The translations under genes and the position numbers were made by a program. Under the pieces are notes generated by a model that searched no databases, was not told where the DNA came from, and saw nothing but the letters and a program-made list of their open reading frames with translations. Shown piece after piece: positions 7,190-56,057 of a stretch of 64,000 nt of DNA. This DNA comes from a virus. The DNA lies in the IMG/VR virus record IMGVR_UViG_3300022890_000014, positions 64,001 to 128,000 of that record. One strand, 5' to 3'. Numbering within the stretch: the stretch's first letter is position 1; every line of letters begins with the position of its first letter.

Positions 7190-7529
7190 GGACACAACTA
7201 GAGATTGGGTTGAACATATATTGAGAAACACTGGAAGGATGTGGACTAAATTCCTGTATCTCCCAGATGATAACGATGTTGCATACCTAAGGTGTATAGG
7301 CTACACATCTGAGAATAGAGGAACAGAAGCGGGGGATGTGCCCAAATCAACTCAGGAGTTTGCAGAGTTTGACAACACTCATAGAAAGACTCAGTATATA
7401 GACAGTATGCAGATGTTCGAGGAAGAAGACTTTCCAGAATACATGCCTTCTTTATTCAAGGTATACTTAGGTGAGTTTCCGTCAAAAGAAGAAGCTCTAG
7501 AATACTACAAGAATACAGATCTTGCGTAA
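7164..7529 (+). CDS. hypothetical protein
   Basis: GAGGTG RBS; stop codon lies in a palindrome. Confidence 0.7.
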   Translation: MKKYYIIYEDTTRDWVEHILRNTGRMWTKFLYLPDDNDVAYLRCIGYTSENRGTEAGDVPKSTQEFAEFDNTHRKTQYIDSMQMFEEEDFPEYMPSLFKVYLGEFPSKEEALEYYKNTDLA

Positions 7530-16284: not shown

Positions 16285-17703
16285 ATGCTGATGATTATTC
16301 GCAAGGAAGCCCAGAGGGCCAACCACATTAGAATTGGTGTACCTTCTGGGCAAGAGGTTGCTTCTACCAGAGTCAAAGGTAAGAAAGCTGCAATCAAGAA
16401 GCTTCCATTCTTTCAGTTCTGCAACACCGTAAGAAACGACCAGGGGTACTATGACCTTGACCATGAGATGCACGAAAAGATTGGTCCAGAGCCAGAGAGT
16501 TTTGGTCCTGTCTTTCTGACAAGCGACCATATCCATGAGTGTATCGAGTCTGGGTTTAGCTTTTGGAAAGGCCCAGGAGGAAAAGGAAAGCTATTTTGTG
16601 GTCGAGCCCTTAGTGTTTTCGACGAGGGTGTTATTCGCACTGGTAATGCCTCAAGAAGAAGAGGTGAAGACTTCTTTGACTTTGAATGTAATGCAAATGA
16701 ATGCCCTGACTTCAAAAGTGGTTCATGCGGCATCTTCACTAAGTACAAGTTTTTCCATCCAGAAACAATACGGTTTGGCGAGTGTGACATGACTATAAAG
16801 TCATACCGTGGAATGGGAGCAATGATAGGTTTCCTTTCTACCATCATGTCTACCGGACTATTCAAGATTGATGTTGAAAGAGGCATCATACATGGTCTCT
16901 CTAAGATACCAATCATGTTTGAGATGAGAGGAATGACCATTACTAACAATGGATACACCTCTAAGGCTTGGTATCCAACACCAGTTGTCTACAATGATAC
17001 AAAAAAGCCAGCACTACTTCTCGTAAAGAGTATAGCGGAAAGTATTGTAAAGCAGACCCAAAACCTGCTGGGTCCAGTAGTCTCCAATCAAGTAAGAATG
17101 ATTGAGGGAATCAAGTCAAATGAGAACATTGATCTTGAAGACTTCCTAGAGGTTATAGATGAGCCAGATAAAAAAGATAAAAAAACCCTTGACTATCCTC
17201 AAGAATCTGATAAGGTAAGTAAAGAGTTAGCTGATGCAGACAGAGCAATCAAGGAACAGCAGAATATAGAAGCAGCCAACATCAGTGCTCAAAAACTCAG
17301 AGATATGCAGGCCCCACAAGCAGCAGTCGAACAAGTTGTTCCAGAACCAGTGAAAACAGTAGCTCCTATACCAACACCAAGCGAGCCAACACCTGAACCA
17401 CAACAAGAGCAAGAATCAACACAGGAAGGTTTTCATATCTTCTCTGCTAACAATCAAGAGGGGACTATTAATAGATACCTTCTTGATCAATTAGAGAGTA
17501 GATTCATCCTGAAGGCAACATCAAAAGAGCATGGAACAATATCTGTTCTTTCTTGGGGTCCAAATCGCACAGAAATTGACATAGCCCTCTCTTCAAAGGA
17601 ACTTGCAGACAGGTTCGAGAAGTCAGGATGGAAGATTCCGAAGCTATTCTTTATGGCTGATGGCAGAGGACTTGACGTAGCATACGAGAAGTTGAGCAAA
17701 TGA
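16285..17703 (+). CDS. Gp3-like / recombination-directionality-factor-like phage protein
   Basis: IRIG..K.LPFF, GPEP, W.G.GG...C, C..ECP....CG and IPI.F pattern resembles the Gp3-like family; Pro/Gln-rich linker. Confidence 0.55.
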   Translation: MLMIIRKEAQRANHIRIGVPSGQEVASTRVKGKKAAIKKLPFFQFCNTVRNDQGYYDLDHEMHEKIGPEPESFGPVFLTSDHIHECIESGFSFWKGPGGKGKLFCGRALSVFDEGVIRTGNASRRRGEDFFDFECNANECPDFKSGSCGIFTKYKFFHPETIRFGECDMTIKSYRGMGAMIGFLSTIMSTGLFKIDVERGIIHGLSKIPIMFEMRGMTITNNGYTSKAWYPTPVVYNDTKKPALLLVKSIAESIVKQTQNLLGPVVSNQVRMIEGIKSNENIDLEDFLEVIDEPDKKDKKTLDYPQESDKVSKELADADRAIKEQQNIEAANISAQKLRDMQAPQAAVEQVVPEPVKTVAPIPTPSEPTPEPQQEQESTQEGFHIFSANNQEGTINRYLLDQLESRFILKATSKEHGTISVLSWGPNRTEIDIALSSKELADRFEKSGWKIPKLFFMADGRGLDVAYEKLSK

Positions 17704-17954
17704 CAAGAACAGGAAAATTGGTACAAGATACTCGCAAGAAAAGAATTTTGAAAGTAGAGTGTGCCAATTCGACTGTTATCATTATTGGCGCTAATGATAA
17801 CATCGCAAACATCCTAGAAGGTGGAGCCTTGGTTGACGGTAAAGCGCCTATGCAATTGCGTTGCATACATGAAATAGATTGGGTTGAAGGAGAAATCAAC
17901 CTAATCAGTAAGAAGAAACTGTTTCCTCCAGTTCTAAACGAAGAGGTTGCGTAA
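17700..17954 (+). CDS. hypothetical protein
   Basis: ATGA-coupled; stop codon lies in a palindrome. Confidence 0.65.
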   Translation: MTRTGKLVQDTRKKRILKVECANSTVIIIGANDNIANILEGGALVDGKAPMQLRCIHEIDWVEGEINLISKKKLFPPVLNEEVA

Positions 17955-17985
17955 GCCTTACGCACCAATAACGGAGAAGTCTAGA

Positions 17986-19620
17986 ATGACAATCGCTAAG
18001 AAAATCCTAACCACATGCACCCCCGAACAATTGATTATCGTCAGCAACATTAAGTCCGGTGAACTCAAAAACGTCGAGAGCCTTGGCCGCACGATGCTGC
18101 CACCCACGGGACAGAAGGTTCCACTGCTTGTTTTCCAGGTTGCTGATGATCTCAAAGTCATCTATGCTGCTCTTAAAGAAAGAGGGGTTGAACTAGAAGA
18201 TCTCTTGGTAGAACTCAAAGATCTCGATAAAGAGACCGAGAAGACCGACTACGAAGAGTTAGAACGTATGATTGAGGGTGTCCGAGCTAATATAAAATTG
18301 ATGGAACAAGACCTCGAAATCCTTGAAGAAGTGGAAGACCCCGAAAATACCTACCGTATTGTTGATGGTCATCGCCGCTTCACCGCTGGTGTCTTCATTG
18401 GTCTCTCAAGCTTCGATATTATCATCCATCCCGCAGAAGCCGACCCATCAAAGGTCATCACTGACCAGATGATTTTGGGTATGCAACAAGAAACCCTGTC
18501 AAAACTCGACGAAGCCCGTACCTACCGCAACCTTCGCAGCTTAGGCAAAACACAAGACGAAATCATCAAAGATACTGGTAATGCCGTTAAGCGTTCCACT
18601 ATCCTTCAGCGTGGCAAAATCCTCGACGTTTATGAAAGAGTTGAGCAGTTCCCACAAGCTAACGAAGAAGCTAGCGTCTTCCTCGATGCAATCGATAACG
18701 ATTCTTTCAAAGTCCAGATTCTCACCAAAATGGGTCAGTATCTCGAAGAAGATGATGTCGCCGATTCTGGCTGGTTGTGGATGATTGAACTCGCTAACAC
18801 AGGCGTTTCCGGTGAAAACTTCGCCACACAATGCAACGATAAATTCGGTGCAAAAGCTGGCCCGACCTCAACTGCAAAGAGCACTGAAGAAGGTGGAATC
18901 AAGACCGCTGGTGGTGTTCGTAAACGCAATGCTTCTGAAATCGAAAAGACATGCAAGTTCTGGCAAAACCTCGCAACCGCCGGACTCGAAAACAGAGCCG
19001 AAAAAGGAGATGCCTGTAATATCTCCAAGATCGATCAGGCTCGCGTCGAGTACGCTGCTTTGCAAGCAGAATGCGATCTCGGTGGAGAAGAGCCTCCAGT
19101 ACCCGAAAGCTTCAAGAAAGCTGCTGAGTACATGAAGAAGCAAGAAAAAGCTGCTGAAGTCAAAGACAAGGAAGCTAAGGCCGCTCTTAAGACCGAAGCA
19201 TCGAAAGAAAAGAAAGAAGCCGCCTCTGCTGAGAAAGAGAAGAAAAAACTCATTATCGATGAGTTCAAGAATCTCTACAAGCTTGATGTCAAAGCTGTCG
19301 AAACCACAATCAAGGCAAACAACGCCAAGATTACCAAGCTCAACGAAAAGATCACAACAGAGAAAGATGAAACCAAACTCAAGAGAGCAACTGGGGAACT
19401 CGAAAAAGCAGTGAATATGCAACTTGTCTTAGACAAGAAGCTTGCTAGCGCTAAAGAGTCTCACGAAGCGTCTAAACCCGAATGGCTGAAAGAAGACGAA
19501 GCCAAGAAGGAAAAAGCCAGAATCGAACGTGAAGCCAAGAAAGCTGACGAAGCTCTCGAAGCTGCCTCTAAGCCAGTCGTCGTCGAAGCTCCAGAAGCTC
19601 CAGAAGCTCCAGTCGAATAA
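17986..19620 (+). CDS. ParB-like protein (ParB/Srx domain, HTH, K/E/A-rich C-terminal tail)
   Basis: YRIVDGHRRFTA (GxxRxxA); LSKLDEARTYRNLRSLGKTQDEI HTH-like; GGAG before ATG 17986. Confidence 0.8.
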   Translation: MTIAKKILTTCTPEQLIIVSNIKSGELKNVESLGRTMLPPTGQKVPLLVFQVADDLKVIYAALKERGVELEDLLVELKDLDKETEKTDYEELERMIEGVRANIKLMEQDLEILEEVEDPENTYRIVDGHRRFTAGVFIGLSSFDIIIHPAEADPSKVITDQMILGMQQETLSKLDEARTYRNLRSLGKTQDEIIKDTGNAVKRSTILQRGKILDVYERVEQFPQANEEASVFLDAIDNDSFKVQILTKMGQYLEEDDVADSGWLWMIELANTGVSGENFATQCNDKFGAKAGPTSTAKSTEEGGIKTAGGVRKRNASEIEKTCKFWQNLATAGLENRAEKGDACNISKIDQARVEYAALQAECDLGGEEPPVPESFKKAAEYMKKQEKAAEVKDKEAKAALKTEASKEKKEAASAEKEKKKLIIDEFKNLYKLDVKAVETTIKANNAKITKLNEKITTEKDETKLKRATGELEKAVNMQLVLDKKLASAKESHEASKPEWLKEDEAKKEKARIEREAKKADEALEAASKPVVVEAPEAPEAPVE

Positions 19621-19666
19621 GTTTGTACTAGCCAATGGCTAGTTGGTTCTAGAAACAGCAAAGAAG

Positions 19667-19695
19667 AGGGCGGTCCACATGGTCGCCCTTTTTTT
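19667..19695 (+). terminator. rho-independent terminator
   Basis: AGGGCG...CGCCCT stem plus T run. Confidence 0.8.
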
Positions 19696-27769: not shown

Positions 27770-28132
27770 ATGCCTGATGAAAAGTATATAAGGATAGTAG
27801 GATGCTTAAATGGACTGGACGGTGAGACGCCAGAGCTTCCAGAAGATGAGTGCTTAAATCCTTGCATGTGGAGGATTAATGCACCAGAGTATAACAATTG
27901 TTGCTGGGTTGTATCTGAAACAACAGAGGGGATTAATGATTTAAGAAAGCTTGGAAAGATGACTGGCATGGCTCATGAAAGTGTAAGGATTGTAATAAGG
28001 AATGCTTTAGAGAAGCTACCCAAGAACCTCGAAGAACTAGACGCAGCATGTAAAAAGATAGATGGAGAAGGTGTTAGGGATAGAGTTAGGATTGATAGAT
28101 ACATGAATGATATAATCACAAAACTAATGTAG
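27770..28132 (+). CDS. small protein with sigma70 region-4-like HTH
   Basis: LRKLGKMTGMAHESVRIVIRNALEKL. Confidence 0.6.
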   Translation: MPDEKYIRIVGCLNGLDGETPELPEDECLNPCMWRINAPEYNNCCWVVSETTEGINDLRKLGKMTGMAHESVRIVIRNALEKLPKNLEELDAACKKIDGEGVRDRVRIDRYMNDIITKLM

Positions 28133-29392: not shown

Positions 29393-29693
29393 TAGGAGAG
29401 TAATAGTGACACCGAATATGGAAATAGATGTAGTCACATCATTAACCGCCAGATACTTAAGGGAAGAAGCGGAGGGTAAAAAGCTATGTGGATACGGTTC
29501 TATGCTTAATGGAATGGACACTGTGGTTCGCATAGAGCTTGAGGATGGATACTTGCACAACCCGTGTATAGTATCTGGAATCGAGGAAGTTCCTGGCGGT
29601 TACACATATACAATGGTTCATGCGTTCCGTCCGATAGTATATAGAAATGTTCAGCCAGGACAGTTCAGGATAATGAAAACGTTTGATGCGTAA
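29382..29693 (+). CDS. hypothetical protein
   Basis: ORF ending in a palindrome. Confidence 0.6.
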   Translation: MQYNRRVIVTPNMEIDVVTSLTARYLREEAEGKKLCGYGSMLNGMDTVVRIELEDGYLHNPCIVSGIEEVPGGYTYTMVHAFRPIVYRNVQPGQFRIMKTFDA

Positions 29694-50611: not shown

Positions 50612-51550
50612 TTAGAGTCCTGTCAGTGGATTGGGTACATCGATTGTGAGTTTGCATGTACCTTTGTTGTTTCCAAAGACCATGCTGATGTATTCCCAAG
50701 CCTTCATGAAGATCATGTCGTAATCTTTCTTGATAGCGAATCGGGTATCGCCCATAAGATAGAAGACTCCAAGCATTTCTGGCTTAGTGAACCCATAGAT
50801 GGAACCAGGAGCAACGGTGTCCTTGATTGTGGTGACGAGCTTGTGACCTTGAATGGTCTCGTAGCTCCAACCGCCCACAGTCATTTCACCAGCGATTTTG
50901 TCTCCGACGACGGTAGCGGGGAGGCTACACCAGTCATCGAAGTCAACTTTGTGCATGAGGGTGCAGTCGAAGTTGAGGCTGTCACCGTCAATCATCTTAA
51001 ACAATGCGGTAAGCAATTGTCGGTCAATCATTGTGGCAGGAGAGGTGATGAGCTTGCCAGTTGCGGCTGCGGCTGCATTGGAAAGTTCGATAAGCTTGTC
51101 ATCTTCTACTTTTTCAATATCTTTGACGGAGATCTTTTCGATCCACTCAGTCACGGGATAGTTGAAAGCAAGAAGGAGAGCTTCTTGAATCGAGTACTCA
51201 AGGGTCTCAATCTTATAGAGCTTTGCAGTGAAGCGGTCGCCTTCGATGAAGCGCCCATCGTGGGCACCCATGAAGTTAGCGGCCATAGCTTGTGTATCAT
51301 CATAAGCTCTGTCAATGATCTTTTCGAGTTGATCATGAGTGGTTGAGCGTTGGCAGTCATCAGCGGTGATGATTTCGGGTGGAATAATACTTCTAGCGAA
51401 TCCGCGTTCTCGAATCTTGAGTTGAATGAAGTTTCTTGTTGCGGCGGCTGCTTTATGTAATCCACCATTCTCACCAAGTCTCTTAACAAAAAGGCGATTG
51501 AACTGGCGGGGTTCCATGCCGGTTACTGTATCAAACATATTTGACCTCAT
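50612..51550 (-). CDS. putative major capsid protein (HK97-like fold)
   Basis: 312 aa, strong codon bias, own terminator; DIEKVEDDKLI helix; C-terminal MKAWEYISMVFGN strand pattern. Confidence 0.7.
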   Translation of the reverse strand: MRSNMFDTVTGMEPRQFNRLFVKRLGENGGLHKAAAATRNFIQLKIRERGFARSIIPPEIITADDCQRSTTHDQLEKIIDRAYDDTQAMAANFMGAHDGRFIEGDRFTAKLYKIETLEYSIQEALLLAFNYPVTEWIEKISVKDIEKVEDDKLIELSNAAAAATGKLITSPATMIDRQLLTALFKMIDGDSLNFDCTLMHKVDFDDWCSLPATVVGDKIAGEMTVGGWSYETIQGHKLVTTIKDTVAPGSIYGFTKPEMLGVFYLMGDTRFAIKKDYDMIFMKAWEYISMVFGNNKGTCKLTIDVPNPLTGL

Positions 51551-54483: not shown

Positions 54484-55179
54484 CTAGGTAAGAGCTTCGT
54501 ATCCACCGTAACCAGCACCGGCTAGACCAACAGCGGGAAGGCCACCTTCAAGAGCAAGACGGCCAGCAGCTTCGCCACGACCCATCTGCTGAACAGCTTT
54601 TGCACCTTCTGTGCTAAATAGCGGCATTTGTGCAGCGCCACCCTCGCCGAGGCCAGTAGCTCTCTGCCCAAGGTTCTTCAAGCGGCTCATGTAGTTACCA
54701 GCGGCTTCACCTGTAGCGCGACCTGCATTGCCGATTGCTCCACCAGCACTACTAATCATTCTTGACAACCAGTTAGCCACTTCGGGCGTAACTGCTTCAG
54801 CGGCACTGGCACTCTTGATGAGTTCGGCAGCTTCACCGTAGCCATTCAAGCGGAGCATATTTTCCATGAGACCGAGCTTGGCAACTTGGGCAAGCTTGAC
54901 ATGAACTTCAGAGACGCGATCTCGTACAGGATCGGCACAGGCGAACTTGGTGAGTTCGTCAAAGTAACCAAGAGCCATAACTTCGCCAAGATACTCGTTC
55001 GTGGCGGCAACTTTGTTCATCATAGCTTCTTGGTTGACAACTTGGCTAGCTTTCTTGTCCATGTATTGTTCTACAGAAAGACCTTCAGCAGCAGCGGCTC
55101 TTGCCCAACCATCTCCCTGCTCAGGAGTTTGTTGTTGAGCAGTCTTGGTCATGGTATTATAAAGGGATAATAGACTCAT
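54484..55179 (-). CDS. putative core/scaffold-family protein
   Basis: GEVMALGYFDELTKFA motif; codon-biased. Confidence 0.6.
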   Translation of the reverse strand: MSLLSLYNTMTKTAQQQTPEQGDGWARAAAAEGLSVEQYMDKKASQVVNQEAMMNKVAATNEYLGEVMALGYFDELTKFACADPVRDRVSEVHVKLAQVAKLGLMENMLRLNGYGEAAELIKSASAAEAVTPEVANWLSRMISSAGGAIGNAGRATGEAAGNYMSRLKNLGQRATGLGEGGAAQMPLFSTEGAKAVQQMGRGEAAGRLALEGGLPAVGLAGAGYGGYEALT

Positions 55180-55577: not shown

Positions 55578-56057
55578 TTAGCTGTGGGAAATAGCCATGA
55601 TTGCAGAAGTTCCTTGAGGGGAGCCACTAAGAGTGTGGATACCATCATTGGAAATATCAGCCAAGCCAGCTTGCACTTTTCTCTGCTCAACTTTGGCAGC
55701 AAACAGATCGTTGTTGTACTGACTTCCATCATTTGGCTTCACGGTACTGAGAGTATCAGCTTGCCCAGGACCATCACCAGGAACTTCAATTCCACCCTTG
55801 GGGGACGTAACGGCAGCGGAGGGAGGAAGATTGGTGTTCATTCCAGAGAGTTCTGCACCAGCAACGACTGCGGCAGAGATCTTGGACATCATGTTGAGAT
55901 AGCCCTTGCCAATAAAAGCGCCTTCGCCTTTGGCATGAGAAGCGATCTTTTCGAGTTGGGATTCTTTTTCGACGATAATAGAAGCAATCTTTTCAAAGGT
56001 GCCTTCTGTGGTTCCGCCATTGGCTTGCTCTTGCAAGAAATTCATTAAGCTAGACAT
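55578..56057 (-). CDS. putative core/scaffold-family protein
   Basis: GAGGAG RBS before ATG 56057; EKIAS twice. Confidence 0.6.
   Translation of the reverse strand: MSSLMNFLQEQANGGTTEGTFEKIASIIVEKESQLEKIASHAKGEGAFIGKGYLNMMSKISAAVVAGAELSGMNTNLPPSAAVTSPKGGIEVPGDGPGQADTLSTVKPNDGSQYNNDLFAAKVEQRKVQAGLADISNDGIHTLSGSPQGTSAIMAISHS

Follow-up and report, generated by a model that had tools for sequence, protein, structure and literature searches.

The DNA analysed here (the window) is a 64,000-nucleotide stretch, bases 64001–128000 of the 150,744-bp IMG/VR record IMGVR_UViG_3300022890_000014 (41.5% G+C; completeness estimate 82%), which comes from an uncultured phage with a genome of about 180 kb. 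Our subject is a gene for a ParB-like protein and a 17-bp palindrome that stands directly before this gene and recurs all along the phage genome. A sequence-only reading of the window had proposed this atypical, apparently abundant protein as the reader of the repeat. The locus contains the following features, in window coordinates.

17700–17954, plus strand: small open reading frame (ORF) of 84 amino acids (aa), directly upstream of the ParB-like gene in 7/7 related loci
17948–17964, strandless: palindrome copy at the gene, perfect over 17 bp, 8-1-8 dyad, centre C, ending 21 nt before the ATG
17973–17976, plus strand: Shine-Dalgarno sequence GGAG, visible in the sequence itself, 9 nt from the ATG
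17986–19620, plus strand: ParB-like gene of the ParB/Noc/KorB family, 544 aa and a stop codon
17986–18138, plus strand: first part of the N-domain (aa 1–51), where relatives carry a conserved VSNVR..GELPN motif
18139–18333, plus strand: acidic helical-hairpin insert (aa 52–116), net charge -12, splitting the N-domain
18334–18495, plus strand: second part of the N-domain (aa 117–170), with D-G-H-R-R-F-T-A at nt 18364–18387 and a degenerate box III
18496–18858, plus strand: helix-turn-helix (HTH) DNA-binding domain of ParB/Noc/KorB type (aa 171–291)
19105–19617, plus strand: K/E/A-rich helical tail (aa 374–544), predicted helices 374–458, 462–495 and 499–528
19668–19695, plus strand: intrinsic terminator, GC-rich hairpin at 19668–19688 followed by U7 at 19689–19695

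The program-listed ORF at 17947–19620 opens with TTG. The ATG at 17986 is taken as the actual start because GGAG lies 9 nt upstream of it and the N-termini of eight homologues align on that methionine. Measured from this ATG, the perfect palindrome is found 21 bp upstream, as had been described, and the small ORF upstream terminates at the TAA within it (17952–17954). The strong terminator noticed behind the gene is likewise present, with a folding energy of -20.1 kcal/mol (z -3.1); a simple consensus terminator scan did not list this hairpin, and no Rfam family or tRNA was found in the window.

By its modelled fold and its family relationships, the encoded protein combines a ParB/Noc/KorB-type N-domain with an HTH DNA-binding domain. 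The AlphaFold 2 (AF2) model has a predicted local distance difference test score (pLDDT) of 90.6, and in Foldseek searches with this model Noc, ParB and KorB rank first (probability 1.00), Noc 7nfu being the top match. VIA-align superposition gave Z 13.2 for KorB 8qa9 (root-mean-square deviation, rmsd, 3.4 Å over 192 aa, model residues 7–289), Z 13.0 for ParB 7bm8 (rmsd 1.9 Å over 97 aa, N-domain) and Z 12.2 for Noc 7nfu, with PadC and sulfiredoxin at Z 10.8–11.6. The HTH superposes on Spo0J-parS 4umk (Z 9.8, model residues 158–288) and on the Noc DNA-binding domain 6y93 (Z 8.9, residues 170–291). A profile built from the nine-member family matches Thermus Spo0J (E 4.9e-13) as well as Noc and ParB over a stretch that runs from the GxxRxxA box to the HTH inclusive, and PHROG 6218 ('ParB-like partition protein') is matched at E 5.6e-11. 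ParB, Noc and KorB, the three families to which the sequence-only reading had pointed, all match by profile or fold.

Every feature of the protein noticed in that reading is borne out. In the ParB box, D127-G-H-R-R-F-T-A134, the residues G128, R130, R131 and A134 are invariant across the nine-member family; G128, R130 and R131 are also invariant in an alignment of 50 ParB-like sequences, so that the GxxRxxA (box II) arginines are retained. The HTH-like segment is of ParB type both by the family profile and by the 4umk and 6y93 superpositions. The EN..R motif of box III is indeed degenerate: the profile alignment sets L-G-M-Q-Q opposite E-N-L-Q-R and ENxxR is lost, while G165 of this region is invariant in the family. 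The acidic insert splits the N-domain as described, but measures 65 aa rather than about 70. It forms two antiparallel helices (52–79 and 86–113) placed between the strand ending P-L-x-V and the Y-R-I-x-D-G-H-R-R strand, and is kept in 8/9 family members, P0005 being without it. The K/E/A-rich tail, announced at about 170 aa, comprises 171 aa of which 57% are K, E or A, and appears to stand in for the usual C-terminal dimerisation domain; in a structure search its three long helices (residues 374–528) matched generic coiled coils only.

The family is rare. An exhaustive phmmer search with residues 1–355 against 1.84 billion representatives recovered eight full-length relatives (493–628 aa) and, beyond those eight, over 200 ParB-like proteins of ordinary type, aligned with residues ~85–250; the family amounts to nine clusters at 50% identity among 1.8 billion proteins. 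No INPHARED phage matched the phage by DNA or by protein. Word-indexed protein searches returned the protein itself only, words from the low-complexity tail having swamped the candidates, and neither a locus search by protein in IMG/VR nor a search by alignment in JGI metagenomes yielded relatives.

The core of the palindrome reads GCGTAAG-S-CTTACGC (S, G or C). Sites with at most two mismatches to the 17-mer number 33 in the window, where 0.01 would be expected; the whole genome has 82, and 55 of these are perfect.

685–63627: palindrome lattice of the window, sites starting at 685, 2579, 4819, 6678, 7523, 9553, 11889, 14007, 15493, 17948, 20660, 23358, 25400, 28171, 29687, 33144, 33686, 34721, 36544, 38382, 40560, 44456, 45534, 47315, 48186, 49966, 51615, 53695, 54441, 55554, 57605, 60652 and 63611

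The repeat was thought to occur every 2 kb or so, and this holds throughout: gaps between sites have a median of 1823 bp and a maximum of 3896 bp, and fall below 500 bp in two cases only. The coefficient of variation (CV) of the spacing is 0.44, compared with 0.98 when sites are placed at random (5000 trials, minimum 0.70) and 1.06 for random subsets of gene starts (minimum 0.78). Even spacing thus appears to be selected on the DNA. The palindrome likewise appears to be conserved as a sequence on DNA rather than as a pairing. The centre base is G or C in 81/82 sites, the outermost position takes 24 of the 33 mismatches, and positions 1–4 from the centre show a single mismatch over all 82 sites. 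A compensatory change of both arms occurs at one site only (G000 137062), at the outermost position, and the genome has no other hairpin family.

Sixty-three sites are intergenic and 19 lie inside called ORFs, mainly long genes. Most of the intergenic ones are squeezed between the upstream stop codon, often the palindrome's own TAA, and the Shine-Dalgarno sequence; such compact stop-palindrome-Shine-Dalgarno-start junctions are seen with TAA at 7527–7529, 17952–17954, 29691–29693 and elsewhere. Inside ORFs of at least 300 nt (16 sites checked) the palindrome is read in frame as R-K-A/P-Y-A or V-S-L-T. In-frame copies are carried by 7/8 genes longer than 2.2 kb, with three in the RNA polymerase beta-type gene. 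The 3.2-kb primase(-helicase) gene holds one in-frame copy each in the window phage (11889–11905) and in two relatives, L001 (647–659) and L006 (2185–2197). These three copies occupy non-homologous alignment columns (438, 250 and 648), which argues for selection for a site in that stretch of DNA and not for a local coding or expression function; the primase gene of a lattice-less relative, L004, has no copy. Sites therein appear to turn over while one per primase gene is retained.

A count over 185,579 bacterial and archaeal genomes gave 68 occurrences of the 17-mer, each a single copy in its genome and together about the chance number; the palindrome is therefore not a host repeat or host regulon site, and its reader is probably phage-encoded. 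The exact 17-mers of the window phage and of L006 are present in IMG/VR as single chance copies only. Spread of the palindrome as a repetitive extragenic palindromic (REP)-like element by a REP-associated tyrosine (RAYT/Y1) transposase was considered and is not supported, PF01797 being absent.

Contigs were recovered for six relatives, which with the window phage makes seven carrying the ParB-like family. Five of the six relatives have an odd palindrome lattice of their own with a G/C centre, so that gene and lattice occur together in 6/7 gene-bearing contigs.

L001 (protein P0002): half-site of CGTAAG type, about 14 copies, 20.8 kb examined
L002 (P0005): half-site GGCATAAG, 5 copies, 7.8 kb examined
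L007 (P0009): half-site GGTGTAAG, 2 copies, 5.6 kb examined
L006 (P0008): half-site TGCATGAG, 13 copies, 19.7 kb examined (CV 0.49)
L003 (P0006): half-site CATGCG, 2 copies, 3.3 kb examined

A palindrome copy lies just upstream of the ParB-like gene in 6/6 lattice phages. Eleven more distant primase relatives from IMG/VR have neither the ParB-like gene nor a lattice. The contigs of two generic phage ParB-like proteins (P0010 and P0012) show no lattice; phage ParB-like genes are therefore not in general accompanied by one. Between phages, the contact helices change along with the half-site. In the recognition helix, position 6 is L, G, Q or I in phages with TAAG-type sites and R in those with TG(A/C)G-type sites, and the next DNA-contact helix has Q in the former and K or R in the latter; the specificity residues of ParB and Noc sit in these two helices (PMC7383237). 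Direct read-out would predict such a pairing, an A-to-G change in the site going with a Gln-to-Arg/Lys change in the protein.

The ParB-like gene has the C-ending, CGY-rich codons (Y, pyrimidine) that had been likened to those of the capsid gene. Its fraction of C-ending codons is 0.32 against a genome mean of 0.19 (standard deviation 0.056), and CGY makes up 0.70 of its Arg codons, the highest value in the genome. The reference for head-gene-like usage was the following gene.

50612–51538, minus strand: major head gene (phrog_2522)

Scored for similarity to the synonymous codons of this head gene, the ParB-like gene comes 2nd among 151 ORFs (z about +3.3), and its L006 homologue is 1st of 19 for C-ending codons. 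The protein is thus probably made in large, near-structural amounts. High-expression codon usage fits a protein that is needed stoichiometrically at many sites.

ParA had been reported missing from the window, and indeed no ParA-type ATPase (PF13614, PF01656) was found even in the full 150.7-kb record, an absence that is not absolute because the record is 82% complete. The ParA-binding motif [LFI]G[KR]G[LFI] is lacking in 9/9 family members, the N-domain beginning at about residue 8. In 7/7 related loci the neighbours are replication genes and never parA.

ParB-family proteins bind 13–16-bp palindromes as dimers. Judged from sequence comparison and modelling, the ParB-like protein is the best candidate reader of the 17-bp palindrome, and we put at slightly better than even the chance that this phage-made, divergent ParB/KorB/Noc protein reads the palindrome and organises, marks or regulates the chromosome without ParA. 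It would bind GCGTAAG-S-CTTACGC as a two-fold symmetric dimer, via its HTH. The phage keeps 82 copies of this site, one of them immediately before the gene itself, spaced evenly at about 1.8 kb. From these sites the whole chromosome would be marked, organised or globally regulated without ParA, in a logic closest to that of KorB on its OB operators. The individual steps differ in strength. Reading of the dyad by a dimer of the ParB-like protein at all sites has about an even chance of being right. That occupancy would extend beyond the sites, so that the whole chromosome is organised, protected, marked or silenced, with no stretch farther than about 2 kb from one of them, is offered tentatively. 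A fuller picture, in which a ParA-independent and possibly nucleotide-independent or non-canonical-pocket protein, made in capsid-like amounts, coats, compacts or marks a large lytic phage chromosome from some 100 even sites, is possible but rather unlikely to hold in all its parts. In that picture the spacing, at most about 3.9 kb, would be tuned to the reach of the protein from each site, and the whole would amount to a virus-made chromatin or self-marking system derived from a segregation protein. Autoregulation through the upstream site is plausible; it would not be specific, because about a third of genes follow a site.

Several observations weigh against assigning the lattice to this protein. 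Most intergenic sites abut the Shine-Dalgarno sequence, 9–16 nt before a start codon on either strand, a position for which a role in gene expression would account too. The ParB_N family of Pfam (PF02195) scores 13.8 bits against a curated cut-off of 26.3, and TIGR00180 scores 34.1 against 58.45. The whole protein has a net charge of about -19 and is therefore not a basic coat protein. The co-variation between contact helices and half-sites, which had been suggested as a check, is present, but the TG(A/C)G types form one clade of the protein tree (support 94/98), so that it amounts to about one event and a second within the P0005/P0009 pair. The link between protein and lattice is correlative and lies largely within one small clade with few independent events. 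The expected co-occurrence holds in 6/7 contigs and fails in one phage, L004/L097 (P0007), which keeps the ParB-like gene and of which about 30 kb contain no repeated palindrome; a role of the protein that does not depend on a lattice therefore exists or is at least possible. This phage is sister to the L006 phage and apparently lost its lattice secondarily while keeping the gene. L004 has a single near-copy of the CGTAAG-type site (17770–17782). Finally, residues equivalent to N136 and R139 of Caulobacter ParB are G and Q in the phage protein.

The last point concerns nucleotide use. Caulobacter ParB no longer binds CTP when it carries N136A or R139A, and no longer hydrolyses it when it carries E135A (PMC8367383). 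CTP clamping by a phage CTPase that loads and spreads is doubtful, because the box III residues required in Caulobacter ParB are absent. The sequence-only reading had proposed a ParA-independent nucleoid protein that coats the genome; its ParB-family HTH and lack of ParA stand, and loading and spreading as a CTPase are the part that has become questionable. ParT of the Streptomyces plasmid SCP2, a ParB-like protein, is reported to load at its site with no need to bind CTP (PMC12260392), a precedent that bears on the phage protein because box III is lost there; ParT belongs, however, to a ParA-type plasmid partition system. A ParB-type fold is able to bind ATP or GTP too (PMC12704722).

The rival that survives best, although we consider it unlikely, is that another dimeric DNA-binding protein of the phage reads the lattice and that the ParB-like protein serves replication or recombination, for example at an origin or a few sites. 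The candidate is a Cys-rich HTH protein.

27770–28132, plus strand: Cys-rich HTH protein, 120 aa, conserved, with a sigma-70 region-4-like HTH; candidate rival reader
L001 18313–18675, L006 18593–19012 and L097 12509–12901: homologues of the Cys-rich HTH protein, 120–139 aa overall

Its gene always comes after a UvrD-type helicase gene and is conserved in the lattice phages L001 and L006, which also counts against the ParB-like protein as reader. The ParB-like gene, for its part, lies within a conserved replication-type block (primase, Gp3-like, small ORF, ParB-like, Tmk, PD-(D/E)XK nuclease) and persists in the lattice-less phage. However, L004/L097 also keeps the Cys-rich HTH gene, as well as the upstream small ORF; the exception therefore discriminates neither candidate and gives the rival no favour. 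Moreover, the Cys-rich HTH gene ranks 144th of 151 for head-gene-like codon usage, a poor fit with a protein occupying 82 sites per genome copy, and region-4-type HTH proteins have no particular precedent for a 17-bp dyad, whereas ParB-family proteins have one.

Less probable still, and in our view improbable, is an action of the palindrome in RNA, as a 7-bp hairpin just 5' of the ribosome-binding site. The hairpin would punctuate, stabilise or help process mRNA, or act as a translational operator bound by an RNA-binding protein, and the ParB-like gene would be just one among many genes preceded by a copy. In 47 cases a start codon follows within 60 nt of the site, in about 30 of them at 9–17 nt, and the palindrome often supplies the stop codon of the upstream gene. 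The hairpin folds with -6.6 kcal/mol (z -3.0), and there is a weak orientation relative to transcription, C standing at the centre on the sense strand in 40:24 (p 0.06). Nevertheless, a place near the Shine-Dalgarno sequence is forced on any inserted 17-mer because intergenic spacers are short. Conservation concerns the sequence and not the pairing, with one compensatory site and no further hairpin families, and the site has two-fold symmetry and serves both strands. The long genes are populated with in-frame copies, the evenness exceeds what gene starts allow, and the palindrome has no Rfam match.

A promoter or terminator element of the phage's own multisubunit-type RNA polymerase is a very improbable explanation. 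Such a polymerase may be encoded outside the window.

G000:C1:2278–9840, minus strand: frame of 2531 aa with RNA polymerase beta-type domains (PF00562, E 6e-27)

The genome also contains a weak sigma region-4 match elsewhere, and sites precede many genes. Yet a symmetric element would fire or stop transcription both ways, copies stand in frame inside genes (three in the polymerase gene itself), most copies lack a following U-run, unlike the classical terminator behind the ParB-like gene, and the site is too near start codons for a -35-type element. An ordinary plasmid-prophage partition ParB, whose ParA would lie in the missing ~18% of the genome, is scarcely credible: the incomplete record and the ParB fold would allow it, but the lack of the ParA-binding motif in every family member, the replication neighbours without parA, the 82 sites dispersed instead of clustered as a centromere, and the capsid-like codons together with a fully virion-type gene set all point away from plasmid partition.

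Returning to the ParB-like protein as reader, KorB/OB appears closest to it in logic and fold, and Noc is its closest ParA-independent, many-site relative. KorB of the IncP plasmid RK2 shares the N-domain and HTH fold and gives the best whole-domain superposition (8qa9); its OB operators have as core an odd palindrome centred on G or C, and they are dispersed over the replicon, often beside genes (PMC11790492). The role of KorB is global and not purely centromeric, the phage likeness being one of logic. KorB works with a small clamp-locking partner, KorA; the phage has a conserved small ORF directly upstream. Unlike the phage protein, KorB has a full CTP pocket and a ParA partner, IncC. The phage protein differs further by its lost ENxxR, the 65-aa hairpin in its N-domain and its 171-aa helical tail, by 82 even sites on about 150 kb instead of a dozen operators, and by its location on a virulent-looking large phage instead of a plasmid. 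Noc of Bacillus subtilis (PMC8429893, PMC7383237) is a ParA-independent ParB paralogue with many scattered palindromic sites on the chromosome (NBS), where it forms large nucleoprotein complexes, and is the top Foldseek match (7nfu). In contrast to the phage protein without box III, Noc is a CTPase with an intact pocket and has a membrane-targeting N-terminus; NBS sites are 16-bp even palindromes, for which even spacing is not reported.

Cluster O mycobacteriophages such as Corndog are the closest published phage case. They carry more than 30 copies of a 17-bp dyad repeat, between and inside genes; its describers suggested that a dimeric protein binds it and considered a function in transcriptional control improbable (PMC4351075). 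Corndog also encodes a ParB-like protein of about 500 aa, gp90, which hhalign relates to the phage family over the N-domain and HTH (82%, E 1e-5). However, the Corndog repeat is organised as 7-3-7 and spaced unevenly (CV 1.06), and gp90 has no insert and keeps an E-N-D-Q-R box, so the relation is at superfamily level only. With chromosomal ParB-parS CTP clamps (PMC8367383) the phage protein shares the N-domain fold, the GxxRxxA arginines and an HTH that reads a palindrome (putatively so in the phage). It differs from them by the lack of ParA and of a ParA-binding peptide, by a replaced box III and a split N-domain, by long helices that appear to take the place of the C-terminal dimerisation domain, and by sites that are dispersed and not clustered. 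We found no published account of a lytic phage in which a lattice of even spacing occurs together with a ParB-like protein.

ParB-type proteins are known in centromere binding (ParB), division-site control (Noc) and plasmid regulation (KorB). If the phage protein reads the lattice, this would be a fourth use of the fold, occupancy of a whole viral chromosome from even sites without a ParA motor. It would then raise the question of how far a ParB-type protein reaches, since the lattice leaves at most about 3.9 kb without a site. For a lytic phage, such occupancy might shield its DNA from nucleases, compact it for packaging, keep it apart from host DNA or set a global timing of gene expression. 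With its split N-domain and lost ENxxR, the protein is also a natural experiment on whether the fold can function without the canonical CTP switch.

Some features of the neighbourhood deserve mention. The small ORF upstream of the ParB-like gene encodes 75–99 aa across loci (AF2 pLDDT 63), has no family match and may be a partner of the ParB-like protein. Upstream of these two genes, at 16285–17703 (plus strand), lies a 472-aa protein with a weak N-terminal match to Gp3-like proteins (recombination directionality factor-like, PF18897), conserved in all relatives. In the lattice-less L004/L097, a crustacean metagenome contig, the replication block contains IS605-type TnpB and HNH endonuclease genes, and an enrichment of AAGATCTT in L004 falls within K/D/L-rich coding sequence. 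Near the head gene, the ORFs at 54484–55179 and 55578–56057 (both minus strand) have capsid-like codons, ranking 4 and 3 of 151, and are likely to encode abundant virion or scaffold proteins.

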